DNA from: Callorhinchus milii
Lineage: Eukaryota
NCBI RefSeq assembly: GCF_018977255.1
Contig: NW_024704742.1
Span: forward strand, 26,972,001-27,036,000
DNA: 64,000 bases
Reading direction: 5' to 3'
The notes under the pieces were generated by a model that was not told the DNA's origin, made no database searches, and was given only the letters and a program-made list of their open reading frames with translations. Below, in pieces: positions 4,975 through 29,896 of the stretch (position 1 is the stretch's first letter; each line of letters opens with the position of its first letter). The position numbers and the translations under genes are program-made.

Positions 4975-7400
4975 TGAGTTTGTCTCTGTGTCTCAATGTG
5001 TGTGTGTCTCAGTGTGTCTGTGTCTCGGTGTGTGTCTGTGTATCTGTGTGTCTCAGTGTCTGTGTATCTGTGTCTCAGTGTGTGTGTGTCTCAGTGTCTG
5101 TGTATCTGTGTGTCTCAGTGTCTGTGTGTGTCTCAGTGTGTGTGTGTATCTATCTGTGTGTCTCAGTGTCTGTGTGTGTGTCTGTCTGTCTCAGCGTCTG
5201 TGTGTGTCTCAGTGTCTGTGTGTATCTATCTGTGTGTCTCAGTGTCTGTGTGTCTGTCTGTCTCAGTGTCTGTGTGTGTCTCAGTGTCTCTCTGTGTGTA
5301 TCTGTGTGTGTCTATTTCTCAGTGTCTGTGTGTGTCAGTGTCTGTCTCAGTGTCTGTGTGTGTGTATCTGTGTGTGTGTGTCTGTCTCAGTGTCTGTGTG
5401 TGTGTATCTGTGTGTGTGTGTCTGTCTCAGTGTCTGTGTGTATATATCTGTGTGTCTCAGTGTCTATGTGTGTGTATCTGTGTGTGTGTGTGTGTCTCAG
5501 TGCTGTGTGTCTGTGTATGTGTGTGTGTCTCAGTGTCTGTGTGTATATATATGTGTGTCTCAGTGTCTATGTGTGTGTATCTGTGTGTGTGTGTGTCTCA
5601 GTGTCTGTGTATCTGTGTATGTGTGTGTGTCTCAGTGTCTGTGTGTGTGTATCTGTGTGTGTCTGTGTGTGTCTGAGTGTCTCTGTGTATTTATCTGTGT
5701 GTCTCAGTGTCTGTGTGTGTCTGAGTGTCTCTCTGTGTGTATCTGTCTGTGTGTCTCAGTGTCTGTGTGTGTGTCTGAGTGTCTGTGTGTGTCTGAGTGT
5801 CTCTGTGTGTATCTATCTGTGTGTCTCAGTGTCTGTGTATCTGTGTGTGTGTCTCTTTCTCAGTGTCTGTGTGTGTCAGTGTCTGTCTCAGTGTCTGTGT
5901 GTGTGTATCTGTGTGTGTGTGTCTCAGTGTCTGTGTGTGTCAGTGTCTGTCTCAGTGTCTGTGTATCTGTGTGTGTGTCAGTGTCTGTCTGTGTCTGTGT
6001 ATCTGTGTGTGTCTCAGTGTCTGTGTGTGTCTGAGTGTCTCTGTGTGTGTATCTATCTGTGTGTCTCAGTGTCTGTGTGTGTGTCTGAGTGTCTGTGTGT
6101 GTCTGAGTATCTCTGTGTGTGTATCTATCTGTGTGTCTCAGTGTCTGTGTATCTGTGTGTGTGTCTCTTTCTCAGTGTCTGTGTGTGTCAGTGTCTGTCT
6201 CAGTGTCTGTGTGTGTGTATCTGTGTGTGTGTCTCAGTGTCTGTGTGTGTCAGTGTCTGTCTCAGTGTCTGTGTATCTGTGTGTGTGTCAGTGTCTGTCT
6301 GTGTCTGTGTATCTGTGTGTGTCTCAGTGTCTGTGTGTCTGAGTGTCTCTGTGTGTGTATCTATCTGTGTGTCTCAGTGTCTGTGTGTGTGTCTGTCTGT
6401 CTCAGCGTCTGTGTGTGTCTCAGTGTCTGTGTGTATCTATCTGTGTGTCTCAGTGTCTGTGTGTCTGTCTGTCTCAGTGTCTGTGTGTGTCTCAGTGTCT
6501 CTCTGTGTGTATCTGTGTGTGTCTGTTTCTCAGTGTCTGTGTGTGTCAGTGTCTGTCTCAGTGTCTGTGTGTGTGTATCTGTGTGTGTGTGTCTGTCTCA
6601 GTGTCTGTGTGTGTGTATCTGTGTGTGTGTGTCTGTCTCAGTGTCTGTGTGTATATATCTGTGTGTCTCAGTGTCTATGTGTGTGTATCTGTGTGTGTGT
6701 GTGTGTCTCAGTGTCTGTGTATCTGTGTATGTGTGTGTGTCTCAGTGTCTGTGTGTATATATATGTGTGTCTCAGTGTCTATGTGTGTGTATCTGTGTGT
6801 GTGTGTGTCTCAGTGTCTGTGTATCTGTGTATGTGTGTGTGTCTCAGTGTCTGTGTGTGTGTATCTGTGTGTGTCTGTGTGTGTCTGAGTGTCTCTGTGT
6901 ATTTATCTGTGTGTCTCAGTGTCTGTGTGTGTCTGAGTGTCTCTCTGTGTGTATATATCTGTGTGTCTCAGTGTCTGTGTGTGTGTCTGTGTGTCTGAGT
7001 GTCTGTGTGTGTCTGAGTGTCTCTGTGTGTGTATCTATCTGTGTGTCTCAGTGTCTGTGTATCTGTGTGTGTGTCTCTTTCTCAGTGTCTGTGTGTGTCA
7101 GTGTCTGTCTCAGTGTCTGTGTGTGTGTATCTGTGTGTGTGTCTCAGTGTCTGTGTGTGTCAGTGTCTGTCTCAGTGTCTGTGTATCTGTGTGTGTGTCA
7201 GTGTCTGTCTGTGTCTGTGTATCTGTGTGTGTCTCAGTGTCTGTGTGTGTCTGAGTGTCTCTGTGTGTGTATCTATCTGTGTGTCTCAGTGTCTGTGTGT
7301 GTGTCTGAGTGTCTGTGTGTGTCTGAGTGTCTCTGTGTGTGTATCTATCTGTGTGTCTCAGTGTCTGTGTGTGTGTCTGTGTGTCTCAGTGTCTGTGGGT
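4975..7400. repeat. Complex (TG)/(TC)-based microsatellite array (TGTCTCAGTGTC / TGTATC motifs), ~2.4 kb
   Basis: Directly visible; gives spurious Cys/Val/Ser/Leu ORFs in all three + frames. Confidence 0.97.
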
Positions 7401-7404
7401 GTGT

Positions 7405-7975
7405 GGGGGGGGGGGGGGGGGGGGGGGGGGTCTGCTGGTTGTTGTTGGGGGGTCTGCTGGTTGTTGGGGGGGTCTGCTGGTTGTTATTGGGGGGGGGTCT
7501 GCTGGTTGTTGGGGGGGGGTGTCTGCTGGTTGTTGTTGGGGGGTCTGCTGGTTGTTGGGGGGGTCTGCTGGTTGTTGGGGGGGGGTCTGCTGGTTGTTGG
7601 GGGGGGTCTGCTGGTTGTTGTTGGGGGGTCTGCTGGTTGTTGGGGGGGGGGTCTGCTGGTTGTTGGGGGGGGTCTGCTGGTTGTTGGGGGGTGTCTGCTG
7701 GTTATTGGGGGGGGGTCTGCTGGTTGTTGGGGGGGGTCTGCTGGTTGTTGGGGGGGGTCTGCTGGTTGTTGGGGGGGGGGTCTGCTGGTTGTTGGGGGGG
7801 GTCTGCTGGTTGTTGTTGGGGGGTCTGCTGGTTGTTGGGGGGGGGGTCTGCTGGTTGTTGGGGGGGGGGGGGTCTGCTGGTTGTTGGGGGGGGGGTCTGC
7901 TGGTTGTTATTGGGGGGGTCTGCTGGTTGTTGGGGGGGGTCTGCTGGTTGTTATTGAGGGGGGTCTGCTGGTTGG
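7405..7975. repeat. G-rich minisatellite, unit G(n)-TCTGCTGGTTGTT
   Basis: Roughly 25 tandem units with G-runs of variable length. Confidence 0.95.
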
Positions 7976-7979
7976 TGTT

Positions 7980-8255
7980 GGGGTGGCAAGGTCGCGGGTG
8001 GGGGGGGCAGGCCGTCGGGGTGGAGGGCAGGCCAGGGGGGGGGAGGGTGCCGGGGGGGGGGGGGGGGGTGCCGGGTCCCGGGGGGGGAGGGTGCCGGGGG
8101 GGGGGGGGGGTGCCGGGGGGGGGGGGGGGGGATGGGGGGGTGGGGGTGGGGGGGGGGGGGGGGGGGGGAGGAGGGTGGGGGGGGGGGGGGGGGGGGGGGG
8201 TGCGGGGGGGCCGGGGGGGAGGGTGCGGGGGGGGGGGGGGGGGGGGGGGGGGGGG
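7980..8255. repeat. Poly-G low-complexity tract (probably low-quality sequence)
   Basis: G runs of 20 nt or more with sporadic other bases; directly abuts the left duplication arm. Confidence 0.85.
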
Positions 8256-9062
8256 AATTCGTGACTGTTTTTGGGACACTGCTGTGCAAAGTTGGCTGCC
8301 GCATTTCACCCACAAAATGTAGTCAATTCATTTTACAATCTATTCTGTGAAGCTCTTTGAGACATATCATGACATTATAAAGGTGCTACATCAAATACAA
8401 GTACTGTATTATTAAAATACAAGCAAATTTCCACTAGGTAGAAAAAGTGTACTGGGAGCTGGAGTATGAGAAGCTGAAGGGCAAAACGGTAGGAATAACT
8501 TTGAAAGCACATCTGTCGAGAGCAATAGGAGTACAATTACGATTACAGGACTTAAATGAATGCAGGGAATGAAGGGTCCAACAAAATTGTGGAAGTAAAA
8601 CTTGGTACAGTCGTAGAGATAGAAAACAATGGGCCACAGAGCAAAAATGTTTTTCCCAAGAATGCAGTCATAGCATGGAGGTGAGCCAAACAAATCAGCT
8701 TTCTCTTTAAAAGAGCTAAATCTTGAATTACCAAGATTTGATACTTGCAACTGCTGAATCCTCTTAAATTTTCTCCATGCTCTTTGAAGGGAAACAATAA
8801 TCTTATTTAGGATGAAAAGAACGCATTAGGAAGCCGTGAATGCCAATTGGAACATTAGTTACTTTGCTGGCACAGGAGAAGCAGCATTTGAATTGAAAAC
8901 AATGTTAAGAATTGTCGAAGACCAACCCAGGCTCAACAGATCTGCAGTCATTCCCGAACAGGTAAGTCTGGTCTCCTTGATCAGCCATGATCTGAGTTAC
9001 AAGAGGCCTATATGAAACAATGGTCAGAGGCTTAGTGTTCAAGATGGTGGGTAAAGTGCAGA

Positions 9063-9444
9063 CCAGTCATTGGGGGCAGGAAATTCTCCCACTCAGCTCC
9101 TGTTAACCCTGAAAGACAAAGCCTTAACGGTGGGGCGGTCCTGGCTGGACAAGCAGTGGGAAAGCTTGTGCTCTCAACGACAAGAGATGCGATTCTAGCT
9201 GGTTGGACTCCAGCAGTACCCACAACGTACACTCTGAGGTCCCCAAGCCTTGTCTTGCCAGCCTGCGCCTTATACTTTCCGGAATTAGGTAAACAGGATG
9301 TATCCCTCCAGGGAGAGAGTGCACATTCCATTGCAATAATCTATCTCTGGAATTTCCATGTGTAGGTGGGATGCATGGAAATCTCAATTTGGTTTGCACA
9401 CTGGGTTTCCGCATGTGTCAGACACCCGGCTGACCAAACAAAAA
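9063..9444 (+). mobile_element. Unidentified non-LTR-like repeat (family 'U'); mirror copy at ~27663-28045 (-)
   Basis: Homologous to 29505-29896, 61899-62307 and 45386-45442; all share the 3' end (gtcagacacccggctgacc + A-rich tail). Confidence 0.8.
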
Positions 9445-9914
9445 TGGTTAGAGGTGACGAAACAGAGACAGTGCGCACTAGAAATGCCATCAGCCATCAG
9501 TTTCCATTTCTATTCCTCCAGCTGCAGAACGAAATCCAAAATTTCAGCTAAGTGTCATCGAGCCCTTTGGAAATATAGATACGTGAGACATGCAGCAACT
9601 GCAAAACTTCATTTGCTGTTTTTACTCGACACGGATTCTCTTGGGTGTATAAGAACATACATAAGAACATAAGAAATGCTAGACGAAAAAGACCATCATG
9701 CTTAGCATAACTGCATACCTCTTCTCGATCGATGATGATGTGCGTGCACTGAACCTTGGATCCTGGTTCATGACAGGTGGTGGGAAAAAACTACGTCCTG
9801 GACTTCATTGCTAGGTCTTGCTGAGTTTATCCCAAATAATGCACACGCAGCTTCAGTGGCAGTCCATCTAGTCCTAGCGGTTGCATGCACATATTTCCCG
9901 AACTACCTATGTAC

Positions 9915-10225
9915 TTCAATCCCTCGCACCTCCCTACCTATCCGACCTGCTTACTCCCCATTTCACCAGCCACTGCCTCCACTCGGCTGGCTCAGGTCTC
10001 CTAATTGTCCCGTGCCCTTCACTCCACCATTGGTGGCAGTGCCTTTAGCTACTACGCCCCAAAACTCTGGAACTCTCTCCCTCGATGCCCCCGCCTAGCC
10101 CCCTCCCTCCCCACGTTCAAGTCCCACCTAAAGACCTCCCTTTTTAATTGTGCTTACGGTCACCTCCTCACTCCCTCCCCCCTTGGCTCGTTGTCAGACT
10201 CCGCCACTGTGAAGCGCTGCAGGAC
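9915..10225 (+). mobile_element. L2-clade LINE 3' fragment; mirror copy at ~26875-27185 (-)
   Basis: Translates to LAPPYLSDLL..GGSAFSYYAPKLWNSLP..FKSHLKTSLF, typical of the L2 ORF2 C-terminus. Confidence 0.85.
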
Positions 10226-12030
10226 ACTACCCCACGCTATATACATCGGTCATTTCAATCCACGAATGTTTGTGGGACACGATTGTTGGCTGACGCATTT
10301 CGTTCACAAATATACAGTCTATTCACTTTACAGTATATTCTGTGAAGCACATTGAGACATCTACAAGACGTGAAAAGCGCTATATCTAATGCAAGGATTA
10401 TTATTATTATATCCTATAATGTTATTTCCTAAAAGAAAACTATCTAATCTGTGTTTGAAAGAATCAACATATCCTGCTTCAACTATCTCCATCAACCATC
10501 AACCAATAATAATCCCTCCAAAACAAAACAATAATAAATTGGTCATTTACTTCATGGCTGATTGCGGGACATTGCTGTTTGCAGATTGCCTGTTACGTTC
10601 ACCTGCAAAATACAGTCACGACACTCTGTAATATATTCTGTGAAGCGCTTGGAGATATCCTGATGAGAAAGGCGCAATATCCCATTTAAGGATTATTATT
10701 ATTATTATTATCTCCCTCGGGTTTAACCATGGGTAAACATGGGTTCGGACAACGAGGAGAGAGATTTGTGAAAGGCTAGGTTAACTTCAAGATTTTCAGA
10801 TGAATTTAAACTCCTGTCAGTCCACTGCACCAATTAACAACAACAACAAAATGCATTTATATAGTTAACGTAGATTATTGTGAAAAGCAATCGCAGTAGT
10901 GACACCTACCTAACAAAGTGAAAGATTTCTAAAGCAGTCTTTTTAGGAACTTATACAAGCAAACTTTTATGACGGGTTTAAATTTTGCAGTTAAAAAAAT
11001 CCTTGCATTGGATATTGAGCCTTTCATGTCGGAAGGATACCTCAAAGCACTTCTAAGGATTTACTGTAAAGTACAGTGACTATGTGTTTCATAGGCAAAA
11101 GCTGCAGCCAATTTATACAGAGCAATATCCCACAAACATGCCTGAGGTTAAAATCATGAGGTTTTAGCAATCTGCCTGCAATCCAACTAACCTTTTAATC
11201 AAAATCTGATATCCCAACTGTCAGACCTGGAAATGACTCGACAGCAATATTTATAACGCTCAAGATTTTTTAAATTAGCTTAATAGTAAGCTTGGTCTAG
11301 GGAAGATCAGCACATTAAAATCTCTCAAAATTTGTTCCACATTGCAGGTTTCACATCTAACAAAATTTACTATTAAAATAAAGTAATTGGACTGGAACTT
11401 GAGGTGCAACTCCAGAAAAATCTTGTACTGTAACATCCAAATGTTTTGCAACCATTCGCTCACAATATACACAGTCAATCCACTTTACAGTGTATCATGT
11501 GAAGCTCTTTGAGACGTCTCAACGACCTGACGAGGCTCTATATCAATGGCAAGGATTTTATTATTATTATTCCCTAGAAGTTAGATGTATTAGGTACACA
11601 AGAACTATGGGGTCAATGTGAGGATATGAGGATATTTTTCAAAGTGTTGCAATGTTTATTTACACTCAGTCTTCTATCAATAGTTAGCATTGAAAGCATC
11701 ATTTCTTAACGTTACTTAGATTGTGCCGCAGGCGATTTGGCTTTGATATTCTGTCGATATTAGTATTTGAAGGCTGCAAACTGGAAAGTTTTTTATTTTC
11801 ACCCAAACCGTTCTGTCGAATATTTCCCTTCTGGAACAACACAAGTGACACTTCTACAGACAGAAAACCTCAATGACTCGACAACAGGCAAATGCATTAA
11901 CACGGGTCCATTTGGAAATGCATCAAATCCAGTTCATGCTACTCAATTTCTGGGTAGGTCCTATTTTCTGGGAATTTATATGACAAAAAGAACTTGTCAA
12001 CACATGTCCTGGGAATAGATCCTCACAAAC

Positions 12031-12390
12031 GTGTAGTCCTGCAGATTAGTAGTTAGAACACTCATCTCGCAATCGAGAGGATTTGGGTTCGATTCTCAGG
12101 CTGGGCAAAATATTAGGCAAGTTTTCTTATTCTTCTGATTACCTAGCAGTAAGTAGGAACCTGGTTGTTAGTCAATTGGCAGATCTCTTTTCCAGGGATA
12201 ATAATCCCTTCGAAAAAATAAAATAAAAATTTAGTCACTCAATCCACGACTGTTTGTGGGACACTGCTGTGCACAATTGGCTGCTGCATTTCGTCCACAA
12301 AATACAGTCAATTCACTTTACAATATATTCTATGAAGCGCTTTGAGACGTCTCAACGACATGATAAAGCGCTATATCAATGCAAGGATTA
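12031..12390 (+). mobile_element. tRNA-derived SINE, long variant; mirror copy at 24706-25063 (-)
   Basis: Degenerate A/B boxes, internal cctagcagtaagtaggaacc core, L2-like tail ending gcaaggatta. Confidence 0.85.
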
Positions 12391-14011
12391 CGATAAACGT
12401 GCAATTTTTTAAAGAGGAACCGAACCATTGCAAGTGCTAGATCTTCCCAAGAAGTAGCAGCAAGTTAAAGAAACCCACAGCAGTTAAAGAAACACACTAT
12501 GCACATCAACACCATATGCAAAATTACAAACTGCTGCAAACTCCTGTGAAACTCCTCCCAATCCTGTGTCAAATGCAAGAATCATTATTTTTAATCTCAT
12601 CTTTGATTCAATAAATGATTCAAAAAACGAGGGAGGCAAAAAGTTTTGTACATAGAGGCTTTTAAAACAGGGAATGCCTGATCGCAAATGTTGAAAGCAG
12701 ATTCCAAAACAACAAGTCTCCCACTACCCAGTCTGTACAGATCAAACAGGGAGGGATGTAAGTGTGCAATAGCCATAAACATTGCTTCACAACACAGCAA
12801 TTGACACAGAAAAGCATCAGGCAAACGGTTGTTATTCAGTCTACAAAAATACAGTCAAAATACACTTTACAACAACAAGAAGATTACATTTGTGTAGCCC
12901 ATCTCAAGTCAGGAGGACATCCCAAGGCGCTGGAATATCTATATCTTGTAAAAATATCTATATCTTTACAGTATATCTTGTGAAGATACGTCTTGACAAT
13001 AAGGTAAAGCTCTATACCAAATGCAAGCATTGTTATTATTATTATTCACAACAAAGCAAGAAAATACCAATGAGAAAACTGGAAAGAAAGACAAACATCT
13101 CAGTTGAGGATCTTTTTGAAAAGCTATTTTCAATGCCTTGTGCGTGTGGCAATTATTGAACCATGAAATGTGAAGGACTACTTTAGCTTCTGGGAAACGT
13201 CTCTATTCAGCTTAAAAACTTTGGCTAGAAACCGCTTCGCCATCTGACAACATTTACTGTAAAGTCCTTTGTATGTTTTCCCCCACCTCCAAACCCCACA
13301 CCCGCAAGTTCTAGAAATCTCTTTAACAGCAAATGTGTACAGTACCAGATCTATCGTCCACAGAATGTGAGCTCACTGACAGCTGCACAAGAATGAATAC
13401 AAGACAAAACTAGTGAAATGCCGCTCTAGTAAGCTTTGAAAACCCACTTCAGCTAACATCCAATTACATTGAAATTGCCTTATCTTATAGCACTGATGTA
13501 AATCGGTACTGCTATCAGCATAGAGATGCTTAACAATCTGCCACTTTTCATTTTCCGCCCTTTTCACTGACTCTCCCACTGAACGAAGTGCCAACAGTCC
13601 TCCGGCACCTCATTGACACATTTCGTTTTCAGTTGATAGCACTCGTCACCTGTGGGTCAGAATATCATAGGTTCAAGACTTGAACCCATGACACTCCAGT
13701 ACAGTAATAATAGTCCTTGTATATGATATAGCATCATGTCATATCACTGAAATGCTTCAAAGCGCTTCACAAGATTTTACTGGAAAGTTTAGTGACCATG
13801 TATTTATAGGCAAACAGGGCAGCCAATCTGCACATAGCAACGGCCCACAAACACAGAACCATAAAGCTTAATCCACAACTGTTTGTGAGACACTGCTGTG
13901 TGCAATTGGCTGCCGCATTTCACCCACAAAAACATGGTCAATCCACTTTACAATATATACTGTGAAGTGCTTTGAGACTTCTCAACGATGTGATTAGACA
14001 CTATATCAAAT

Positions 14012-14329
14012 GTGGAGTCCTGTAGCTCAGTGCTTAGAGCACTCGCTTTGCAAGTGAGAGACCCGAGTTCAATTCCAGGCAGAGGGCGAAACCTTGGGCA
14101 AATTTCCTTACTCCACACAGAGCCTAATAATAATCCCTCCAAAAACAATAATAAATTGGTCATTTTCAATCTACGACTGTTTGTGGGACATTGCTGTGCG
14201 CAATTGGCTGTCACGTTCGCCCACAAATATACAGTCAATTCACTTTACAGTGTGTTCTGTGAAGCGCTTTGGGACGTCCTCCCGACGTGAAAAGCGCTAT
14301 GTCAAACGCAAGGATTATTATTATTATTA
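14012..14329 (+). mobile_element. Young tRNA-derived SINE, short variant; mirror copy at 22769-23084 (-)
   Basis: Head GGAGTCCTGTAGCTCAGTG..TTTGCAA..GAGTTCAATTCC (A box, TGC-anticodon-like loop, B box); tail AGCGCTTT..AAAGCGCT + (TTA)n; near-identical to 48303-48625. Confidence 0.92.
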
Positions 14330-14971
14330 AATGCAAGGATTATTCATATTATTATTATTAAAGTGAGTGACCACTTTTTTGGAGGGATTGCGAACCGGAA
14401 CACTGGTAGAAACTCCCTTCTCTTTTCGAACAGTGTGATGGGTACTTAAACATCCACCTGAACAGGCTGAAGGGACTTGCGTTTATTGTCTCATCTGAAG
14501 GATAGTACCACAAACACCGAGCACTATATTGAGTTCAAAGCTTCAATGTGGGGCTTGAACCCACAACCTTTTGAGTCAGAGGTAAGAGTGCTACCACTTG
14601 AACCAGGTTCACCCCCACCCCCTTCCCATACTGTTAGCGGTGATGTCTTTCATACAAAATGTTGAACTATCTGCTTGCATTTAATCAAACATAAACATGT
14701 TTCATTGGGAGAAGGGAGTGTCCCAGCATGTCCTGATCAACAATTGTCCAGAGTAATTCAGCCGTTCACCACCAAAAGGCATTGAGCAATCAAAATCAAT
14801 GTCCAAACCAGTTTTCACACAGCACCTGTGCCCACGCACTTTTTTGGAAGGGGGAAATGGCTGAGAGTGAATGGATAATGATGATAATGATGAATGGGAA
14901 CCTCCCGAGATTGGAGAAGCCAAGACAAATTGTGGTATTCTACCCCTCAATCACAATGAGCTATCTTGGTG

Positions 14972-15199
14972 TGGTCTCTTTGACCGAGCCTTCAGCTCCC
15001 CTCTCGACTCTCTTCCCCCTCCTCGCTCCCTCCCTTCCCTCCCCTCACCCTGACCATTTCCCCCCTCCTCGCTCCCTCCCTTCCCTCCCCTCACCCTGAC
15101 CATTTCCCCCCTGCTCGGGTCATGACCCAACTGTGCAGCGCCTTGGGACGTCCTCCTGACGTGAAAGGCGCTTTATAAATGGAATCTTGTTGTTGTTGT
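14972..15199 (+). mobile_element. L2 LINE extreme 3' end with internal 46-bp tandem duplication; mirror copy at ~21895-22125 (-)
   Basis: ctctttgaccgagccttc..gcgccttgggacgtcctcctgacgtgaaaggcgct..(TTG)n; same end as 42125-42360 and 50535-51090. Confidence 0.8.
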
Positions 15200-16402
15200 C
15201 TCCACAGAACAAAAACTGGGATCTGCCTCACCTCTACAGCTCAGATCCACAACCTGCAATTACGTTGTGCACTGTCCTTTCCTCATTGAGCCATTCAACC
15301 TGACAACACCTGTTGAGCACATGTCCAAATCAGTCAAAAGGGATTGCCTCAACTGTTTTTTTTTAAAAAAAGTGTTCTTTTAACATGGAGAAATGCAACA
15401 TAACCTTTCCCAAAACTCCCAGGAGGAACTTTTCAAACATAAAGCACCCGATGTTCCATCCGCTCACTATGTCCTCTGGGTAGCAACACCACAAGTCTCA
15501 CTGCGAACAAAGCTCGTTTCCTTGTAGATGTTCAGCAACACACACCCACACAACCTTTCTGGACTGTTGAGTGAATACAGGAGCTTTGAAGTCATTTACT
15601 TTTAAACTGAATAATATATATTCGAGGCTCAGACCATTCTGTAAGCACTTGATTATTTACACCGGTGAAAGGGAAACATTGTAATGAGAAGCACACTTGT
15701 CTCGCCAAAGCTTGTATGAACTATTTACCTCATTCTGAAAAATACACGTACACACGTGAAAGGCGCTGTATGAATGTAAAACCTTTGCTGTTGTTGACTC
15801 CGAAACCCACAACTCCATAAAAGGTCATTGAATTCTCACCCATTCCTAGTGTGCCAAATAGTTCTGCAAACCACTAAACTAAAACAAGAGAGAGCGTATA
15901 GTACTCACACACCTGGGCTGGAAAATTCCACTCGTGAACATGCCAGGAATCAATTACATTGCGGCTTTGGCAAACAGAAAAAAATAAAGCCATTCGTCAG
16001 CTTGACCATCCGCCTGGCCCCTCTATAAATGGAGCTTTTCACACATTAAAGCAAGGGAGGGGACGCTTTATAAACAAGCTTCATACTGTAGCTCTATATC
16101 AGTCCGTGTATGATAGACTGATATCTAAAAATAATAAGAATAAGAATAACCGTTGCATTTGATTGTGCCTTGTCACGTTGTCGAGATGTCTCGAAATGCT
16201 TCATAGAATTTACTGTAAAGTGCTTCTCGACTGTATTTTGTGTATTGAAAAAATATTGACTTTTTTAAAAAATAAGATAAACTAGGAATGAGAAGGAGGA
16301 AAACAAAAACTTGTATGACACAACTAAACAGCAGTAACAGGACTACGTTTATGTAAAGAAGTAAATAATCGGGATTTATATGCACTGAACAACAACACAA
16401 CA

Positions 16403-16427
16403 NNNNNNNNNNNNNNNNNNNNNNNNN
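16403..16427. other. Assembly gap (25 N)
   Basis: Run of 25 n, 7 nt after the end of the left duplication arm. Confidence 0.99.
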
Positions 16428-16524
16428 CAACAACAAAAATTACATTTGTAAAGGCCTTTCACGTCGGGAGGACCTCGCAAGGCAACGAAACAAGAAGTTT
16501 CCGCAGGTCAACTATGAAGTGATT

Positions 16525-17182
16525 ATAATAATAATCCTTAAATGGGATATTGCGCCTTTCTCATCAGGATATCTCCAAGCGCTTCACAGAATATATTACA
16601 GAGTGTCGTGACTGTATTTTGCAGGTGAACGTAACAGGCAATTGCAAACAGCAATGTCCCGCAATCAGCCATGAAGTAAATGACCAATTTTGTTTGGGGG
16701 TTAACAAGGGGGAGAAACTCCCTTCTCTTTTCAAGTTGCATTACGGGATCTTTTAAAGTCCACCTGAACAAGCAGAACTTCCCCCAATGCAGCGGATTCT
16801 TAGGACTGGACCGGAGGGTCATCCTAGACCAGGGTGGACCAACTGTTGCCACCCCAGTCCGCATTCGAGGGATGATTTCATCCGGTCCACAGATCATTTC
16901 TAACTTCATTGTCTGAAGAGCAAATACACACAGACCGTGTGTCAATCAATCAGGACACGGCCACCAGAGGCTCAGGCTCTGTCTGGCAAGTAACTGGCCA
17001 AACAGGATAAAATATTGCTCATTTGCCAACAGATGTTTCTCAAATCCAGCATCCGGCCCTCAGCAGCCAAAAGGTTGGAACACCCTGGCCTAGACTACAC
17101 AAGTTCAAAGTCCTGACATAGGGCTTGAACCCAAAACCATCTGACTCAGATACAAGAGAGCTACAAACTATGCCAGGCTGAC
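16525..17182 (-). mobile_element. Deu-domain-like tRNA SINE interrupted by a hAT MITE
   Basis: Tail and ttcaggtggac..aaagatcc core at 16525-16829, head at 17088-17182; compare the intact copy at 56201-56631. Confidence 0.75.
16830..17087. mobile_element. hAT (Charlie-like) MITE
   Basis: Imperfect TIRs CAGGGTGGACCAACTG / AGGTTGGAACACCCTG; 8-bp TSD TCCTAGAC / GCCTAGAC. Confidence 0.85.
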
Positions 17183-17877
17183 TGACTGACCGACACATGT
17201 ACTGTAAATAAGCAGCAGGGTTTCCTGTAGTCACAATCAGTGAACTAACATTATCTGGACCGCATCTGCCCACGACTAGGTTTTTGACTATTCCTCCATG
17301 GATGCTACAGATCAGCTTAATGTGCATTTACCGACAGTGAAGAGCACAAAGAAATACTGTTCTAAACACACGCGGTCTCTCCCCACCGCCCCCCACCCGC
17401 GCCCCCCTCAACACAGCACTATCAAACCAACATCTAGGTTCAGGAATCCCATTGCAGAGATGCCGTTAAGTCACGGACTGTCATACAGAACAGTTGCTTG
17501 TCCCCTGATCAGCAGTGGATCTCCAGATCCCCAGTAATTTGTGAACTGGCCCGGGAGAAGCGGAAAGAAACAAAACACAAGTTATATATAAAAAAATTAG
17601 CTTGTAGCTGTAGTTGAAGACTGCCTGCCAATACACAACAATACATACAATCTTTAGAGAAAGCAATTGCCAGAGCTGGAATTATTTCAATCCTGGCCTA
17701 TATTGACAGACACACACAATGTGACAAACACAAATTCTAATCTCGGTCTCTTACGTGACGATATGCAACAAAGTGCGCAGATTGCACACAAGTAAAACTG
17801 ATGTCTTTTACTTGCTGCAAGGAAATGTACTCAAATGAAATTCACGGAGTGTGGGGGGGAGGGGGGAAAGAGGCAGC

Positions 17878-19720
17878 GTGGATGGAGCCTTAGGATACCC
17901 CGCAGGTGACCGGGTGGGGGCAAGAAGTAAAGTAATTTGTGGAAATGTTAGTGCTGGCTGTTTGTAAGGTAGGACTCGAACCATTCAAATGCGGTCCCAC
18001 TGAGGTGGATGATGGAGGAGAGGCGATGGAGGAGGATGGCGTGATCGACTGTGTCGAATGTGACGGAGAGGTCCAGGAGGACGAGGAGGCAGAGGGAGCC
18101 CCGGTCATAGATAGTGAGGATATCGTTTGTGACCTTCATGAGCGCTGTCTCTGTACCGTGAGCAGGACAGAAACCGGACTGGAGGGGTTTGAGTAGGGTG
18201 TGGAGGGAGAGCCGTGCGCAAAGTTGGTCGGCAACAACGCATTCCCCAGCTTTGGCAAGGAAGGGCAGGTTAAAGATAGGGCAGTAGTGCCCGAGGTTGG
18301 AGGGATCGAGAGTAGGTTTTTTAAGGAGGGGGTTGATGACAGCGGTTTTGAGCACGAGTGTGACTGATCCTGAGGAGAGGCACTGCTGAATGGTGTCTGC
18401 CAGCAGTGGGCAGAGGAGGGGGAGCTGGGTGATCAGCAGCTGGGTGGGGAGAGTGGGGTCGAGGCCGCAGGTGGTGGGTTTCATCAGGAGGATGGAGGAT
18501 GAGAGGGAGGAAGGAGAGATGGGGGCAAAAGAATGTAGGATGGGGGCCGTGGTAGGAGCTGGGGTGGGTGAAGGAGATGGAATTGGGGGGGGTTGGTAGG
18601 GGACACGGGGCAGGAGGATGAGGCTGCCAGGCAGATCCTTTCAATTTAGAAGGCGGTCCATGACCTGTTCACACTTGGTGTTTGATGTAATGATTAAGGT
18701 GCTCGATGGGGTCACGGAGGACGTGGTGGGTGGTGGAGAATAGGATTTTGGAGTTGTTTTTGGCCTCCAGAATGATCTTTAAGTAATACGCAGTTTTTGC
18801 TTGCGAGAGGGAGCGGCGGTAGGTGTGACGGTGCTCAAGACACAGCTGGCAGTGAACCGCGAGGCTGGTTTTCTGCCACCTGCGCACGAGTAATTGGGTT
18901 TGTGATTTTAGGGAGCGGAGATGGCTGTTGTTCCAAGGGGAGCGGGTGGGTTTGAAGACGGTCCTGGATTTCAGGGGGGGACAAGGGAGTTGAAGGTGGA
19001 GGAGAAGCGATCATGGAGCAGCTTGACGGCTGCATCAGGGTCACTGCGGGTGGAAGGCCAGAGGGAGAGGAGGTCTGAGGATGAGAGGGCATTTGTGAGC
19101 ATCTCGGCGGGAAGCCCTTTCCATGGGCAGAAAAGGATGGTGGAGGGCTTGATGAAGGGGAAAGGGATGCGACAGGAGAGAGAGAGAGACAAGGAAATGG
19201 TCAGAGATGGCCTTGTCTGTGTTAGACAGACTGGAGAGGATTGCGCAGTTTATATGGAGAGTGAGATTTAGGGTGGAGAGGAGTGCAATGAAGTCAGAGG
19301 AAGTGGGATAGGAGGAGTTGAAATGAAGGTTGAAGTCGCACACGACGACCAGGCGTTCAGTGCAGAGGGACAGGAATGAGAGGAGAGAGATGTCCATGAG
19401 GAAGGAACCAGGAGGTTTGGAGGGGATTTTGAAGCAGGGAGGGTAGGGATGATAAGAGGGTGAAGTGCTCGAAATAGGGGAAACAGCCAGAGGATTAGGG
19501 GGATAGGTTAAGGGAGGTTCGGGAGATGAAGGCCACCCCACCACCGCGACGGTTGGGGCGGTGGGGGGAGGTTTCGATGAGGGGGACGCAGTTGCCGGAG
19601 GACAGCCAGGTTTCTGTGAGCCCTACGATATCAATTTGCTCATCCAGGATGAGGTGGTGGATGGTGAGGGCTTTGTTTGAGGAGCGGACATTTTGGAGGG
19701 TGATGCGGGTGGGGCGCTGA
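17878..19720 (-). mobile_element. L2-clade LINE ORF2 fragment (APE endonuclease + N-terminal half of RT), pseudogenised
   Basis: NVRS..LTETWL APE motifs near 19600-19700; ORF 17948..18484 has PLLKKPTLDP..QSGF..HGTETAL..LVLLDLSVTFDTVDH; ends at VTCGVS*GS. Multiple frameshifts. Confidence 0.93.
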
Positions 19721-20154
19721 TGGAATTGGACGCTGGGGGGAGGGGTTGGGGGGGGTAGATTGTGGGGGGAGAATGACCGTGGGGTTTGAGGGGGGAAGAG
19801 AGTTGTGAAGGGTGTGGATGTGGGAAGGGTTTGCTTTATTATTATATTATTATTATTTATGGGTGTGGAGGAAGAATCTTGCGTAATGAGTGGGTGATGG
19901 GGCAGTCAGGGAGGCTGTTCTGGGGCAGCTAACAACGTGTGCCACGATGAGCAAGGGGTGGGTCCCAAGCTGGAGCAGAGGGAGGCAGTGGATGAGTCCA
20001 GGAGAGAGAGAAGCCAAGGAGGGCGACAGGAGGAGAAAGGAGCTTGCACAGTTGGTTGGTGGCTTGCAATGTATCTGCTTGCACATGCTCCGTACATTGT
20101 TAATAAAGATGGATGGGAGGGTTATAGCTGACTTAATTCCTGTTCTGTGCACTT

Positions 20155-20555
20155 AATATAGCGCCAAAATCATGAAATATCTCAAAGCACTTCACAGTAA
20201 ACTTGTCAAGTATAGTGACTGCGTATCGGTAGGCAAACACAGCAGCCTATCCCTGCATAGCAATAATGCTCCACAAACAGCCAGGAAATGAGTGACCAAT
20301 TTTATTTGTGGGTTTTGTAGGCCAGGACACTAGGAGAAACTCCCTTCTCTTTTCGAACAACGCCATGGAATCTTTAATGTTCACTGAACAGGAAGACAGG
20401 ACCTCAGTTTAACATCTCACCCGAAGGATGACACCACAGACAATGCAGATCTACTCCAACTCTGGCCGGAGTGACAACCGAGATTGCAAGTTCAAAGTCC
20501 TGATGTGGGTCTTTATCTTGCAACGTGGCCTAGAGGCGAGGGTGCTGCCAACTCA
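20155..20555 (-). mobile_element. Deu-domain-like SINE, degraded
   Basis: ggccaggacac..ccatggaatctttaatgttcactgaacagg..tttaacatctcacccgaagg core with L2-like tail. Confidence 0.7.
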
Positions 20556-20697
20556 ATTGAACTTTATTTTCAAAGAAAATTCAGTTTAATGCTGTGAAAC
20601 GTAACACTCTCTCATTTTCGATACCCAAGTGCCACTATCAAGCTGTCTGAATGGGAAATCCCACACACATTGACCACCTGAACCGACTGTGCCAAAA

Positions 20698-23600
20698 TTG
20701 TTGTTCAGTGCATATAAATCCCGATTATTTACTTCTTTACATAAACGTAGTCCTGTTACTGCTGTTTAGTTGTGTCATACAAGTTTTTGTTTTCCTCCTT
20801 CTCATTCCCTAGTTTATCTTATTTTTTAAAAAAGTCAATATTTTTTCAATACACAAAATACAGTCGAGAAGCACTTTACAGTAAATTCTATGAAGCATTT
20901 CGAGACATCTCGACAACGTGACAAGGCACAATCAAATGCAACGGTTATTCTTATTCTTATTATTTTTAGATATCAGTCTATCATACACGGACTGATATAG
21001 AGCTACAGTATGAAGCTTGTTTATAAAGCGTCCCCTCCCTTGCTTTAATGTGTGAAAAGCTCCATTTATAGAGGGGCCAGGCGGATGGTCAAGCTGACGA
21101 ATGGCTTTATTTTTTTCTGTTTGCCAAAGCCGCAATGTAATTGATTCCTGGCATGTTCACGAGTGGAATTTTCCAGCCCAGGTGTGTGAGTACTATACGC
21201 TCTCTCTTGTTTTAGTTTAGTGGTTTGCAGAACTATTTGGCACACTAGGAATGGGTGAGAATTCAATGACCTTTTATGGAGTTGTGGGTTTCGGAGTCAA
21301 CAACAGCAAAGGTTTTACATTCATACAGCGCCTTTCACGTGTGTACGTGTATTTTTCAGAATGAGGTAAATAGTTCATACAAGCTTTGGCGAGACAAGTG
21401 TGCTTCTCATTACAATGTTTCCCTTTCACCGGTGTAAATAATCAAGTGCTTACAGAATGGTCTGAGCCTCGAATATATATTATTCAGTTTAAAAGTAAAT
21501 GACTTCAAAGCTCCTGTATTCACTCAACAGTCCAGAAAGGTTGTGTGGGTGTGTGTTGCTGAACATCTACAAGGAAACGAGCTTTGTTCGCAGTGAGACT
21601 TGTGGTGTTGCTACCCAGAGGACATAGTGAGCGGATGGAACATCGGGTGCTTTATGTTTGAAAAGTTCCTCCTGGGAGTTTTGGGAAAGGTTATGTTGCA
21701 TTTCTCCATGTTAAAAGAACACTTTTTTTAAAAAAAACAGTTGAGGCAATCCCTTTTGACTGATTTGGACATGTGCTCAACAGGTGTTGTCAGGTTGAAT
21801 GGCTCTCAATGAGGAAAGGACAGTGCACAACGCAATTGCAGGTTGTGGATCTGAGCTGTAGAGGTGAGGCAGATCCCAGTTTTTGTTCTGTGGAGACAAC
21901 AACAACAACAACAAGATTCCATTTATAAAGCGCCTTTCACGTCAGGAGGACGTCCCAAGGCGCTGCACAGTTGGGTCATGACCCGAGCAGGGGGGAAATG
22001 GTCAGGGTGAGGGGGAGGGAGGAGCGAGGAGGGGGGAAATGGTCAGGGTGAGGGGAGGGAAGGGAGGGAGCGAGGAGGGGGAAGAGAGTCGAGAGGGGAG
22101 CTGAAGGCTCGGTCAAAGAGACCACACCAAGATAGCTCATTGTGATTGAGGGGTAGAATACCACAATTTGTCTTGGCTTCTCCAATCTCGGGAGGTTCCC
22201 ATTCATCATTATCATCATTATCCATTCACTCTCAGCCATTTCCCCCTTCCAAAAAAGTGCGTGGGCACAGGTGCTGTGTGAAAACTGGTTTGGACATTGA
22301 TTTTGATTGCTCAATGCCTTTTGGTGGTGAACGGCTGAATTACTCTGGACAATTGTTGATCAGGACATGCTGGGACACTCCCTTCTCCCAATGAAACATG
22401 TTTATGTTTGATTAAATGCAAGCAGATAGTTCAACATTTTGTATGAAAGACATCACCGCTAACAGTATGGGAAGGGGGTGGGGGTGAACCTGGTTCAAGT
22501 GGTAGCACTCTTACCTCTGACTCAAAAGGTTGTGGGTTCAAGCCCCACATTGAAGCTTTGAACTCAATATAGTGCTCGGTGTTTGTGGTACTATCCTTCA
22601 GATGAGACAATAAACGCAAGTCCCTTCAGCCTGTTCAGGTGGATGTTTAAGTACCCATCACACTGTTCGAAAAGAGAAGGGAGTTTCTACCAGTGTTCCG
22701 GTTCGCAATCCCTCCAAAAAAGTGGTCACTCACTTTAATAATAATAATATGAATAATCCTTGCATTTCATAATAATAATAATCCTTGCGTTTGATATAGC
22801 GCTTTTCACGTCGGGAGGACGTCCCAAAGCGCTTCACAGAACACACTGTAAAGTGAATTGACTGTATATTTGTGGGCGAACGTGACAGCCAATTGCGCAC
22901 AGCAATGTCCCACAAACAGTCGTAGATTGAAAATGACCAATTTATTATTGTTTTTGGAGGGATTATTATTAGGCTCTGTGTGGAGTAAGGAAATTTGCCC
23001 AAGGTTTCGCCCTCTGCCTGGAATTGAACTCGGGTCTCTCACTTGCAAAGCGAGTGCTCTAAGCACTGAGCTACAGGACTCCACATTTGATATAGTGTCT
23101 AATCACATCGTTGAGAAGTCTCAAAGCACTTCACAGTATATATTGTAAAGTGGATTGACCATGTTTTTGTGGGTGAAATGCGGCAGCCAATTGCACACAG
23201 CAGTGTCTCACAAACAGTTGTGGATTAAGCTTTATGGTTCTGTGTTTGTGGGCCGTTGCTATGTGCAGATTGGCTGCCCTGTTTGCCTATAAATACATGG
23301 TCACTAAACTTTCCAGTAAAATCTTGTGAAGCGCTTTGAAGCATTTCAGTGATATGACATGATGCTATATCATATACAAGGACTATTATTACTGTACTGG
23401 AGTGTCATGGGTTCAAGTCTTGAACCTATGATATTCTGACCCACAGGTGACGAGTGCTATCAACTGAAAACGAAATGTGTCAATGAGGTGCCGGAGGACT
23501 GTTGGCACTTCGTTCAGTGGGAGAGTCAGTGAAAAGGGCGGAAAATGAAAAGTGGCAGATTGTTAAGCATCACTATGCTGATAGCAGTACCGATTTACAT

Positions 23601-26600
23601 CAGTGCTATAAGATAAGGCAATTTCAATGTAATTGGATGTTAGCTGAAGTGGGTTTTCAAAGCTTACTAGAGCGCATTTCACTAGTTTTGTCTTGTATTC
23701 ATTCTTGTGCAGCTGTCAGTGAGCTCACATTCTGTGGACGATAGATCTGGTACTGTACACATTTGCTGTTAAAGAGATTTCTAGAACTTGCGGGTGTGGG
23801 GTTTGGAGGTGGGGGAAAACATACAAAGGACTTTACAGTAAATGTTGTCAGATGGCGAAGCGGTTTCTAGCCAAAGTTTTTAAGCTGAATAGAGACGTTT
23901 CCCAGAAGCTAAAGTAGTCCTTCACATTTCATGGTTCAATAATTGCCACACGCACAAGGCATTGAAAATAGCTTTTCAAAAAGATCCCTCAACTGAGATG
24001 TTTGTCTTTCTTTCCAGTTTTCTCATTGGTATTTTCTTGCTTTGTTGTGAATAATAATAATAACAATGCTTGCATTTGGTATAGAGCTTTACCTTATTGT
24101 CAAGACGTATCTTCACAAGATATACTGTAAAGATATAGATATTTTTACAAGATATAGATATTCCAGCGCCTTGGGATGTCCTCCCGACTTGAGATGGGCT
24201 ACACAAATGTAATCTTCTTGTTGTTGTAAAGTGTATTTTGACTGTATTTTTGTAGACTGAATAACAACCGTTTGCCTGATGCTTTTCTGTGTCAATTGCT
24301 GTGTTGTGAAGCAATGTTTATGGCTATTGCACACTTACATCCCTCCCTGTTTGATCTGTACAGACTGGGTAGTGGGAGACTTGTTGTTTTGGAATCTGCT
24401 TTCAACATTTGCGATCAGGCATTCCCTGTTTTAAAAGCCTCTATGTACAAAACTTTTTGCCTCCCTCGTTTTTTGAATCATTTATTGAATCAAAGATGAG
24501 ATTAAAAATAATGATTCTTGCATTTGACACAGGATTGGGAGGAGTTTCACAGGAGTTTGCAGCAGTTTGTAATTTTGCATATGGTGTTGATGTGCATAGT
24601 GTGTTTCTTTAACTGCTGTGGGTTTCTTTAACTTGCTGCTACTTCTTGGGAAGATCTAGCACTTGCAATGGTTCGGTTCCTCTTTAAAAAATTGCACGTT
24701 TATCGTAATCCTTGCATTGATATAGCGCTTTATCATGTCGTTGAGACGTCTCAAAGTGCTTCATAGAATATATTGTAAAGTGAATTGACTATTTTGTGGA
24801 CGAAATGCAGCAGCCAATTGTGCACAGCAGTGTCCCACAAACAGTCGTGGATTGAGTGACTAAATTTTTATTTTATTTTTTCGAAGGGATTATTATCCCT
24901 GGAAAAGAGATCTGCCAATTGACTAACAACCAGGTTCCTACTTACTGCTAGGTAATCAGAAGAATAAGAAAACTTGCCTAATATTTTGCCCAGCCTGAGA
25001 ATCGAACCCAAATCCTCTCGATTGCGAGATGAGTGTTCTAACTACTAATCTGCAGGACTACACGTTTGTGAGGATCTATTCCCAGGACATGTGTTGACAA
25101 GTTCTTTTTGTCATATAAATTCCCAGAAAATAGGACCTACCCAGAAATTGAGTAGCATGAACTGGATTTGATGCATTTCCAAATGGACCCGTGTTAATGC
25201 ATTTGCCTGTTGTCGAGTCATTGAGGTTTTCTGTCTGTAGAAGTGTCACTTGTGTTGTTCCAGAAGGGAAATATTCGACAGAACGGTTTGGGTGAAAATA
25301 AAAAACTTTCCAGTTTGCAGCCTTCAAATACTAATATCGACAGAATATCAAAGCCAAATCGCCTGCGGCACAATCTAAGTAACGTTAAGAAATGATGCTT
25401 TCAATGCTAACTATTGATAGAAGACTGAGTGTAAATAAACATTGCAACACTTTGAAAAATATCCTCATATCCTCACATTGACCCCATAGTTCTTGTGTAC
25501 CTAATACATCTAACTTCTAGGGAATAATAATAATAAAATCCTTGCCATTGATATAGAGCCTCGTCAGGTCGTTGAGACGTCTCAAAGAGCTTCACATGAT
25601 ACACTGTAAAGTGGATTGACTGTGTATATTGTGAGCGAATGGTTGCAAAACATTTGGATGTTACAGTACAAGATTTTTCTGGAGTTGCACCTCAAGTTCC
25701 AGTCCAATTACTTTATTTTAATAGTAAATTTTGTTAGATGTGAAACCTGCAATGTGGAACAAATTTTGAGAGATTTTAATGTGCTGATCTTCCCTAGACC
25801 AAGCTTACTATTAAGCTAATTTAAAAAATCTTGAGCGTTATAAATATTGCTGTCGAGTCATTTCCAGGTCTGACAGTTGGGATATCAGATTTTGATTAAA
25901 AGGTTAGTTGGATTGCAGGCAGATTGCTAAAACCTCATGATTTTAACCTCAGGCATGTTTGTGGGATATTGCTCTGTATAAATTGGCTGCAGCTTTTGCC
26001 TATGAAACACATAGTCACTGTACTTTACAGTAAATCCTTAGAAGTGCTTTGAGGTATCCTTCCGACATGAAAGGCTCAATATCCAATGCAAGGATTTTTT
26101 TAACTGCAAAATTTAAACCCGTCATAAAAGTTTGCTTGTATAAGTTCCTAAAAAGACTGCTTTAGAAATCTTTCACTTTGTTAGGTAGGTGTCACTACTG
26201 CGATTGCTTTTCACAATAATCTACGTTAACTATATAAATGCATTTTGTTGTTGTTGTTAATTGGTGCAGTGGACTGACAGGAGTTTAAATTCATCTGAAA
26301 ATCTTGAAGTTAACCTAGCCTTTCACAAATCTCTCTCCTCGTTGTCCGAACCCATGTTTACCCATGGTTAAACCCGAGGGAGATAATAATAATAATAATA
26401 ATCCTTGCATTTGATATAGCGCTTTTCACGTCGGGAGGACGTCCCAATGCGCTTCACAGAATAGACTGTAAAGTGAATTGACTGTATATTTATGGGCGAA
26501 CGCGGCAGCCAATTGCGCACAGCAATGTCCCACAAACAGTCGTAGATTGAAAATGACCAATTTATTATTGTTTTGTTTTGGAGGGATTATTATTGGTTGA

Positions 26601-28853
26601 TGGTTGATGGAGATGGTTGAAGCAGGATATGTTGATTCTTTCAAACACAGATTAGATAGTTTTCTTTTAGGAAATAACATTATAGGATATAATAATAATA
26701 ATCCTTGCATTAGATATAGCGCTTTTCACGTCTTGTAGATGTCTCAATGTGCTTCACAGAATATACTGTAAAGTGAATAGACTGTATATTTGTGAACGAA
26801 ATGCGTCAGCCAACAATCGTGTCCCACAAACATTCGTGGATTGAAATGACCGATGTATATAGCGTGGGGTAGTGTCCTGCAGCGCTTCACAGTGGCGGAG
26901 TCTGACAACGAGCCAAGGGGGGAGGGAGTGAGGAGGTGACCGTAAGCACAATTAAAAAGGGAGGTCTTTAGGTGGGACTTGAACATGGGGAGGGAGGGGG
27001 CTAGGCGGGGGCATCGAGGGAGAGAGTTCCAGAGTTTTGGGGCGTAGTAGCTAAAGGCACTGCCACCAATGGTGGAGTGAAGGGCACGAGGGACAATTAG
27101 GAGACCTGAGCCAGCCGAGTGGAGGCAGTGGCTGGTGAAATGGGGAGTAAGCAGGTCGGATAGGTAGGGAGGTGCGAGGGATTGAAGTACATAGGTAGTT
27201 CGGGAAATATGTGCATGCAACCGCTAGGACTAGATGGACTGCCACTGAAGCTGCGTGTGTATTATTTGGGATAAACTCAGCAAGACCTAGCAATGAAGTC
27301 CAGGACGTAGTTTTTTCCCACCACCTGTCATGAACCAGGATCCAAGGTTCAGTGCACGTACATCATCATCGATCGAGAAGAGGTATGCAGTTATGCTAAG
27401 CATGATGGTCTTTTTCGTCTAGCATTTCTTATGTTCTTATGTGTGTTCTTATACACCCAAGAGAATCCGTGTCGAGTAAAAACAGCAAATGAAGAGGTAT
27501 TCTTGCAGTTGCCGCATGTCTCACGTATCTATATTTCCAAAGGGCTCAATGACACTTAGCTGAAATTTTGGATTTTGTTCTGCAGCTGGAGGAATAGAAA
27601 TGGAAACTGATGGCTGATGGCATTTCTAGTGCGCACTGTCTCTGTTTCGTCACCTCTAACCATTTTTGTTTGGTCAGCCGGGTGTCTGACACATGCGGAA
27701 ACCCAGTGTGCAAACCAAATTGAGATTTCCATGCATCCCACCTACACATGGAAATTCCAGAGATAGATTATTGCAATGGAATGTGCACTCTCTCCCTGGA
27801 GGGATACATCCTGTTTACCTAATTCCGGAAAGTATAAGGCGCAGGCTGGCAAGAGTCAAGGCTTGGGGACCTCAGAGTGTACGTTGTGGGTACTGCTGGA
27901 GTCCAACCAGCTAGAATCGCATCGCTTGTCGTTGAGAGCACAAGCTTTCCCACTGCTTGTCCAGCCAGGACCACCCCACCGTTAAGGCTTTGTCTTTCAG
28001 GGTTAACAGGAGCTGAGTGGGAGAATTTCCTGCCCCCAATGACTGGTCTGCACTTTACCCACCATCTTGAACACTAAGCCTCTGACCATTGTTTCATATA
28101 GGCCTCTTGTAACTCAGATCATGGCTGATCAAGGAGACCAGACTTACCTGTTCGGGAATGACTGCAGATCTGTTGAGCCTGGGTTGGTCTTCGACAATTC
28201 TTAACATTGTTTTCAATTCAAATGCTGCTTCTCCTGTGCCAGCAAAGTAACTAATGTTCCAATTGGCATTCACGGCTTCCTAATGCGTTCTTTTCATCCT
28301 AAATAAGATTATTGTTTCCCTTCAAAGAGCATGGAGAAAATTTAAGAGGATTCAGCAGTTGCAAGTATCAAATCTTGGTAATTCAAGATTTAGCTCTTTT
28401 AAAGAGAAAGCTGATTTGTTTGGCTCACCTCCATGCTATGACTGCATTCTTGGGAAAAACATTTTTGCTCTGTGGCCCATTGTTTTCTATCTCTACGACT
28501 GTACCAAGTTTTACTTCCACAATTTTGTTGGATCCTTCATTCCCTGCATTCATTTAAGTCCTGTAATCGTAATTGTACTCCTATTGCTCTCGACAGATGT
28601 GCTTTCAAAGTTATTCCTACCGTTTTGCCCTTCAGCTTCTCATACTCCAGCTCCCAGTACACTTTTTCTACCTAGTGGAAATTTGCTTGTATTTTAATAA
28701 TACAGTACTTGCATTTGATGTCGCACCTTTATAATGTCATGATATGTCTCAAAGAGCTTCACAGAATAGATTGTAAAATGAATTGACTACATTTTGTGGG
28801 TGAAATGCGGCAGCCAACTTTGCACAGCAGTGTCCCAAAAACAGTCACGAATT
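20698..28853 (-). repeat. Right arm of ~8.1 kb inverted duplication
   Basis: Reverse complement of 8256-16395 with scattered substitutions and small indels; continuous with its flanks on both sides. Confidence 0.98.
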
Positions 28854-29504
28854 GAATGACCAAATTATTATGTTAATAATTTTTTTGAGGCAATTATTAC
28901 CCCCGGAAAGCGATCCGCTAATTGACTATCACCAACCCCAAGTTTCCACCTTATAATCTTCTACCAAAGGCATGTCTATGGTTATGTAGTTTCCTCTCAA
29001 ATTATTCCAACTGTTCGTTCTCTGACTTTTTCACACACTCACTTACTCTCTTTGTTTCTCGTTCACTCACTGTCACAGAGGGCAATTCTATTTGCCAAGG
29101 CCCCTCGCATGAGGACCTGGATTGAGCAGCTGGTGCTGAGTAAACCTGGTACAATTTTGTTGGATCCTACACCCAGCTGACCAAAAAAAAACTCACTGAC
29201 TCCCTTTCTCATTGTCTCACTCGCTGTTTCACACACTCTCTCACCCACTCTCGCGCTTTCTTACCCACTCTCAATTGATGTGCACATTAATTTGGATTAA
29301 ACGTCCTACATGGCTGTTTGCCCCCCTCCCCAACTAGTGACTATCCTCCTTGGGGGTGAGCTGAACTGATTCCAAGGTGACATGTTTGGCAACAGAATGT
29401 TGGAATCGAGCCAACCCTCTGTGATGGTCTCGGTAGTCCGGTTCCTAAACCAGGCTTCCAGGGCACTGCTGCTGATAGCCTGGCACATCGGCAGGACTTG
29501 GAAA

Positions 29505-29896
29505 GGCAAACTGGGGCAAGGACTCTTCCCATCAGCTCCTGTTAACCGTGTAAGCCAAAGCTCCAATGGGTAGGGTGGTCCTAGTTGGACAAGCAGCGAG
29601 AACGTTTGGCAGACAGTGCTATCAATGGCAAGCTATGTTTACTTAGCTGATTAGACGCCCAACGCACACTCTGGGATCTCCAACCCTTGGTTCTGGCCAA
29701 CCTGAGCCTAATAATTTCTGTAATTAGGTAAGCAGGATGCGTCCCTCCAGAGAGAGAGTGCGCATTACATTGCAACAATTTATCTCTGGGTTTTCCATGT
29801 GTAGGTGGGATGCATGGAAATCTCAGCTTGGTTTGGATATTCTTTAGCACGGTGATGGGTTTCCACATGTGTCAGACACCCAGCTGATCNAAAAAA
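29505..29896 (+). mobile_element. Family 'U' repeat copy (may extend 5' to ~29310)
   Basis: Colinear similarity to 9063-9444 and 61899-62307. Confidence 0.8.

Follow-up and report, generated by a model that had tools for sequence, protein, structure and literature searches.

In the assembled genome of the elephant shark (Callorhinchus milii), two nearly identical arms lie in opposite orientation around a single-copy spacer, and this inverted repeat precedes the main JADE1 coding exons. At a probability that we put at about three in four, it is a heterotype false duplication made during assembly, in which two alleles of one 8.1-kb segment have come to stand side by side. All positions given here are those of the window, the whole stretch of 64,000 nucleotides that was analysed.

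The presence of the inverted repeat in the assembled sequence, far beyond chance, is confirmed by self-BLAST, which returned one long inverted match (8256–16395 against 28853–20698) at 98.85% identity over 8166 columns, with 58 mismatches and 17 gap openings. The arms measure 8140 and 8156 nt and are separated by 4302 nt, in agreement with the initial annotation, which had described near-identical arms of ~8.14 and ~8.16 kb with a 4.3 kb spacer. The small indels that it had listed also recur at their sites in the arm alignment, except that the left arm is short by 6 nt (1 + 5 nt at 9605/9607) rather than by ~7; the left arm further lacks 2 nt at each of 9253, 10011, and 15288 and carries a surplus C at 13421. 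A global alignment of the arms contains 53 substitutions, 34 of them clustered in one SINE block at 10549–10687, which leaves 19 substitutions (0.24%) and 14 small indel events outside it. By hand count from the alignment, 15 of these 19 are transitions and 7 fall at CpG. Sequencing error was rejected as their source, since they are rich in transitions and CpG sites and the same letters are found in other samples; the arm-to-arm substitutions are biological.

Table 1. Features of the inverted repeat and of JADE1 in the window
Feature	Position	Strand	Remarks
G-rich low-complexity flank X	7405–8255	+	G26, 21-nt tandem array, G-rich run; abuts the left arm
Left arm L	8256–16395	−	Reverse complement; reads as second allele of the right arm
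SINE patch in left arm L	10536–10705	−	Copy of the spacer SINE replacing the young SINE of the right arm (26389–26563)
Antisense copy of JADE1 X2 exon	15232–15286	−	In left arm; CAA>TAA stop at codon 9
25-N gap	16403–16427	none	Within the (AAC)n run after left arm L
Spacer S	16428–20699	none	Single copy; carries an old SINE and a decayed LINE
Right arm R	20700–28853	+	Native orientation; outer end falls within a SINE reaching 28931
First coding exon, predicted JADE1 isoform X2 (XP_007895904.1)	21809–21863	+	18 codons, AG/GTGAG donor; in right arm
First coding exon, predicted JADE1 isoform X1	40300–40371		Second alternative start
JADE1 coding exons	43477–43557, 51610–51696, 55417–55575, 62476–62670	+	Limits from tblastn

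The evidence that bears most directly on the arrangement comes from four other DNA samples of one study (X1–X4), represented by four genome-sized contig sets among 24 sequencing runs, none of which is registered as RNA. These are contigs and not reads; they were aligned to 16428–32500, that is, the spacer, the right arm, and 3.6 kb of the right flank. X1–X4 hold 0.66–0.74 of the left-arm words, of which only 903 of 8117 are specific to the left arm, while two further runs that we guess to be RNA, X5 and X6, hold 0.40 and 0.20. Contigs over the right-arm start align only from 20700 and, in X1, X2, and X3, carry another 271, 253, and 133 letters that do not match the spacer end. The depths of these same contigs (12.2, 8.69, and 7.98) reappear exactly at spacer place 16500, the X4 depth of 7.35 at 16500 is found again at 20809, and the end of the X3 contig maps to spacer place 16558, with 131 + 2 letters making up its 133. 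From the matching depths and overhangs we infer that, in all four samples, the right-arm start is joined in inverted orientation to the spacer start. The join of spacer end to right arm, as assembled, would then be absent from all four, because a compacted contig would break at 20700 if both joins existed; X2 and X3 do have contigs at 20478–20525, near the spacer end.

The roles of the junctions are thereby exchanged. Suspicion had fallen on the junction beside the N gap, yet the arm-start/spacer-start join is the one that the contigs of the samples carry, and hence the true one; suspect instead are the gap-free joins 8255/8256 and 20699/20700, and the spacer, as assembled, probably has the wrong orientation with respect to the right arm. 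At the other end, the sample contigs over the right arm reach no further than 28773 and end within its outermost SINE. In X1, X2, and X4, a contig was also seen that matches from 23294 on and has at least 255 differing, SINE-like letters before that point, possibly a near-identical SINE piece from another locus.

The samples also carry letters of the left arm. Among the 40 differences listed, with 16 more beyond the list, at least seven of the 19 arm substitution sites show the left-arm letter: at 23572, 27548, and 27576 in every sample, at 27513 in three of the four, at 28533 in two, at 21833 in one, and at 28722 with counts that are mixed with repeats. As left-arm letters thus occur in the samples, several of them varying between samples, the arms are best read as a pair of alleles at a single locus. 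The X3 contig aligns with nine gaps, a net change of −7, and a T at 21833, as the three inner indels of the left arm predict, and X1 has the right-arm letter at 21833 with the same join as X3, which places both alleles in one arrangement. The divergence between the arms (0.24%) resembles that between assembly and samples, 61 of 21,518 letters or 0.28%, a lower bound like the other figures of this kind, since the differences were under-counted in all four samples. At 23674, the right arm has no C, three samples are compatible with the extra base of the left arm, and the right arm is likely wrong; the G's missing from the left arm at 13108 and 16285 are kept by the samples. Judged from the letters, the arms look like two alleles, each with a few residual homopolymer errors. 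The misplaced haplotig of the initial annotation is thus supported by the single copy and by the allelic differences in all four samples, whereas the error-prone gap fill that it named beside it accounts only for a few single-base indels, in both arms.

The depth of the arm in the sample contigs is nearer to one copy than to two. Contig word depth, which is not equivalent to copy number and comes here from the contigs of other samples and not from raw reads of the source animal, gives arm/non-arm ratios of 0.96, 1.29, 1.33, and 1.18 in X1–X4; the pooled ratio is 1.20, with a bootstrap interval (1.04–1.38; 33 vs. 32 values) that excludes 1.0, the values including hand-picked apparent single contigs and the repeat-summed rows having been dropped. 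Weighted by length over the 32 listed contigs, the ratios are 1.11, 1.66, 0.91, and 1.27, the second of these with two non-arm contigs. Non-arm contigs diverge from the assembly by 0.41% vs. 0.23% for arm contigs, and this greater divergence may lower their depth.

A palindrome common to the whole species, whose two arms would be real and might form long dsRNA or let the spacer flip, is consistent with the assembled sequence itself and with an arm depth slightly above 1. It is nevertheless close to excluded: none of the four samples has a fork at 20700, the depth is far from twofold, and all 12 calls at three sites are the left-arm letter, for which p is about 0.0002 under random picking from two copies. 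The 8-kb dsRNA and the inverting spacer that had been proposed for this locus require two real arms, and to these the samples lend no support.

The gene itself gives an orientation to the right arm. The exon at 62476–62667 matches Callorhinchus milii JADE1 with 100% identity (250 hits from 265 candidates), and in the predicted isoform X2 protein the exon in the right arm is spliced to 43477. Since this exon, which has a GTGAG donor, shares the strand of JADE1, the right arm is in gene orientation. Its antisense copy in the left arm, read from 15286 to 15232, contradicts the earlier view that no gene is duplicated, and the T that makes the stop in this copy is matched at 21833 in sample X3. The ATG at 43504 is the start in three other members of the cluster and, among those listed, in most shark relatives; the N-terminal extension of X2 is absent from the shark relatives listed. 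Together, the stop allele and the relatives without the extension suggest that the predicted X2 exon is probably an untranslated 5′ exon. Further upstream, within 4190–4940, candidate splice donors near 4278 (AAG/GTAAGT) and 4926 (CAG/GTACTG) could end upstream non-coding JADE1 exons. The translation of a near-perfect 21-nt tandem array at 37936–38151 (10.3 copies) repeats a 7-residue match to mammalian JADE1 and has none to the elephant-shark protein; the match is probably due to chance.

The SINE copies show which parts of the repeat are native. The terms “SINE,” “young,” and “old” are our own labels, assigned from copy identity inside the window rather than from a repeat library. The old SINE of the spacer spans 16522–16775, and the left-arm patch (~140 nt) matches its portion 16522–16690 at 98.8% over 170 nt, shares a 1-nt insertion with the spacer SINE of sample X1 (place 16642), and has its switch points within common blocks of 13 nt and about 15 nt. 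SINE similarity continues past 28853 to 28931, and past 16690 to about 16775; because it crosses both points, the join of the right arm to the right flank (Y) and the spacer SINE would be native, and the left-arm start and the patch derived. The end of the X3 contig, ~30 nt into the spacer SINE, was considered as a fork at the patch, lies four letters off the predicted place, and was not counted. The spacer also carries, on the minus strand at ~17950–19900, the LINE, in which a reverse-transcriptase piece (RVT_1, E 4e-6) and an endonuclease piece (Exo_endo_phos, E 5e-5) both score under the curated Pfam cut-offs.

The substitutions between the arms are unevenly spread (p = 0.0004), with 13 in the outer 2.3 kb and the other 6 in the 5.7 kb further in. 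On either side of the SINE patch their density differs fivefold, with 0.57% at 8256–10550 and 0.11% at 10700–16395.

The left arm is directly preceded by a G-rich run of 221 nt (8035–8255), and upstream of flank X lies a TG/TC microsatellite array (4981–7404). With the G26 and 25 copies of a G-rich 21-mer, this amounts to 3.3 kb of unbroken low complexity at 4981–8255, which may be partly unreliable. Single Ns at 29890, 41733, 52607, and 55603 each touch an A6 or T5–6 homopolymer and would fit a pyrosequencing-era draft that was patched later. The motif AATT, found at 0.7% of window positions, is common to the left-arm start (8256–8259), the right-arm end (28850–28853), and the spacer end (20696–20699), and both suspect joins are without N and have 2–4 nt of microhomology (AATT; TT/TTG). 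At the edge of the spacer, TT/(GTT)n at 20698–20705 is the counterpart of the (AAC)n run where the spacer starts, a short inverted microhomology.

The orientation of the right arm agrees with that of JADE1 and with the SINE that crosses 28853. Several observations cast doubt on an assembly error. The suspect joins are without N and the true join has one, which fits a simple misplaced contig poorly; short microhomology is present at both suspect joins; a local SINE patch is hard for an assembler to produce; and the uneven substitutions and the pooled depth interval above 1.0 point the same way.

We regard it as unlikely, on balance, that the sequenced animal carried a real but rare inverted duplication, the product being flank X–reverse(R)–S–R–Y as assembled. 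The DNA would have broken at the boundary of G-run and spacer and been resected, and the 3′ end would have annealed back at TT/(GTT)n, the spacer forming a loop, unless a fork switched template twice instead. AATT would then have served to reconnect the inverted copy with the G-run. On the way, a brief excursion from one SINE to the other and back would have taken place, for which a template 6 kb away is at hand, with common blocks of 13 nt and about 15 nt. No false join is required on this account, as the novel junctions are gap-free with 2–4 nt of microhomology, and the inverted arms, single-copy spacer, and edge microhomology match fold-back duplications as described in the consulted part of PMC3907307. 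The four samples, however, are all without it, although zero carriers in 8 haplotypes, if these are four unrelated diploids, allows a frequency of up to 0.31. Furthermore, a copy made in cis should start out identical, whereas the arms differ where single-copy samples show both letters, so that a crossover, the homologue as template, or a sequence drawn from two haplotypes is also needed, and the left arm is bounded exactly by the gap and the low-complexity flank.

Quite improbable, in our view, is a source heterozygous for a 12.4-kb inversion of the S + R block between AATT sites, in which X–L–S from the inverted haplotype was fused to R–Y from the standard one; the duplication would be false and the X/L join real. 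AATT is indeed present at both ends of the block, the expected right join of the inversion reads AATTG, the same as the assembled S/R join, and the sample contigs are silent on the orientation of the block because the join that they show lies inside it. Even so, one false gap-free join (S/R) remains necessary, a join of spacer end to flank Y was not found among the matches listed, and the inversion would leave the X2 exon in the opposite orientation to JADE1.

Returning to the false duplication made in assembly, the closest known system is the heterotype class of Ko et al. (2022; PMC9516828), in the accessible part of which a gap between copies and heterozygous words are given as hallmarks. 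As there, neighbouring alleles lie on one scaffold at allele-level divergence, with 25 N at 16403–16427 between the copies and heterozygous alleles seen, by proxy, in four other samples. Unlike the cases in that part, the copies here are inverted, one of them has the spacer flipped along with it, and the two suspect joins are gap-free; the word “inverted” was not found in the main text of PMC9516828 as far as it was available. Fold-back inverted duplications (Hermetz et al., 2014; PMC3907307) share with the present repeat the inverted arms, a single-copy spacer, here of 4.3 kb, and short inverted microhomology at its edge. As described in the available part of PMC3907307, those are large patient rearrangements beside terminal deletions, translocations, or rings, whereas the elephant-shark repeat is of 8 kb, interstitial, and absent from four samples, with arms that differ as alleles. 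Within the window nothing suggests an adjacent terminal deletion, translocation, or ring, and the contigs of the four samples, over 16428–32500, show no junction of this kind and an arm depth nearer to one copy than to two. In the literature on gap filling, false duplication, fold-back duplication, and the elephant-shark assembly, searched without JADE1 itself as a query, we found no paper on this locus.

PBJelly leaves exactly 25 N at overfilled gaps. According to the parts of PMC3504050 and PMC9635638 that were consulted, 25 N is the threshold of that program for a gap, and overfilled gaps accompany inversions and scaffolding errors and duplicate sequence, so that what is added beside an unclosed gap repeats nearby DNA, much as here; what fits PBJelly itself in this assembly is only the 25-N length. 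Long reads, as far as the part of PMC4580222 at hand describes them, contain 1–2% of chimeras and twin reads that are able to enter gap fills.

In the model that we favour, the false duplication, the locus would consist of a single 8.1-kb segment whose start adjoins that of the 4.3-kb spacer, and its native order would be flank X–reverse(S)–R–JADE1 side. In the assembly (X–L–gap–S–R–Y), the second allele and the spacer would form a block L–gap–S that is placed the wrong way round, with the G-rich flank, which is hard to sequence, on one side and allele R, in its correct place, on the other. The single copy, the join of S-start to R-start, and the allelic differences are read directly, or by a short step, from the four samples; that flank X natively joins the spacer end, and that the sequenced animal resembles the four samples, would be suppositions of the model. 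As a guess, the two false joins may have arisen when long reads were used to fill a gap of wrong orientation or wrong size, perhaps with a chimera among these reads.

Should the locus instead be a real, rare fold-back duplication, seeded at a G-rich fragile site and with a SINE-to-SINE switch and an antisense JADE1 exon copy inside, which we think unlikely, 8 kb of inverted sequence would lie in the JADE1 5′ region, and a transcript reading through it could fold into long dsRNA. The locus would then provide a clean natural case of a multi-switch fold-back in a cartilaginous fish, though of a known class. On the reading that we prefer, the species itself probably does not have the inverted repeat upstream of JADE1. 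In the assembly, the 5′ region of the gene then probably contains ~8 kb of surplus sequence and a flipped 4.3-kb piece, a misassembly that would mislead work on promoters, conserved elements, and read mapping, and that hides polymorphisms such as the stop allele in the predicted X2 exon.
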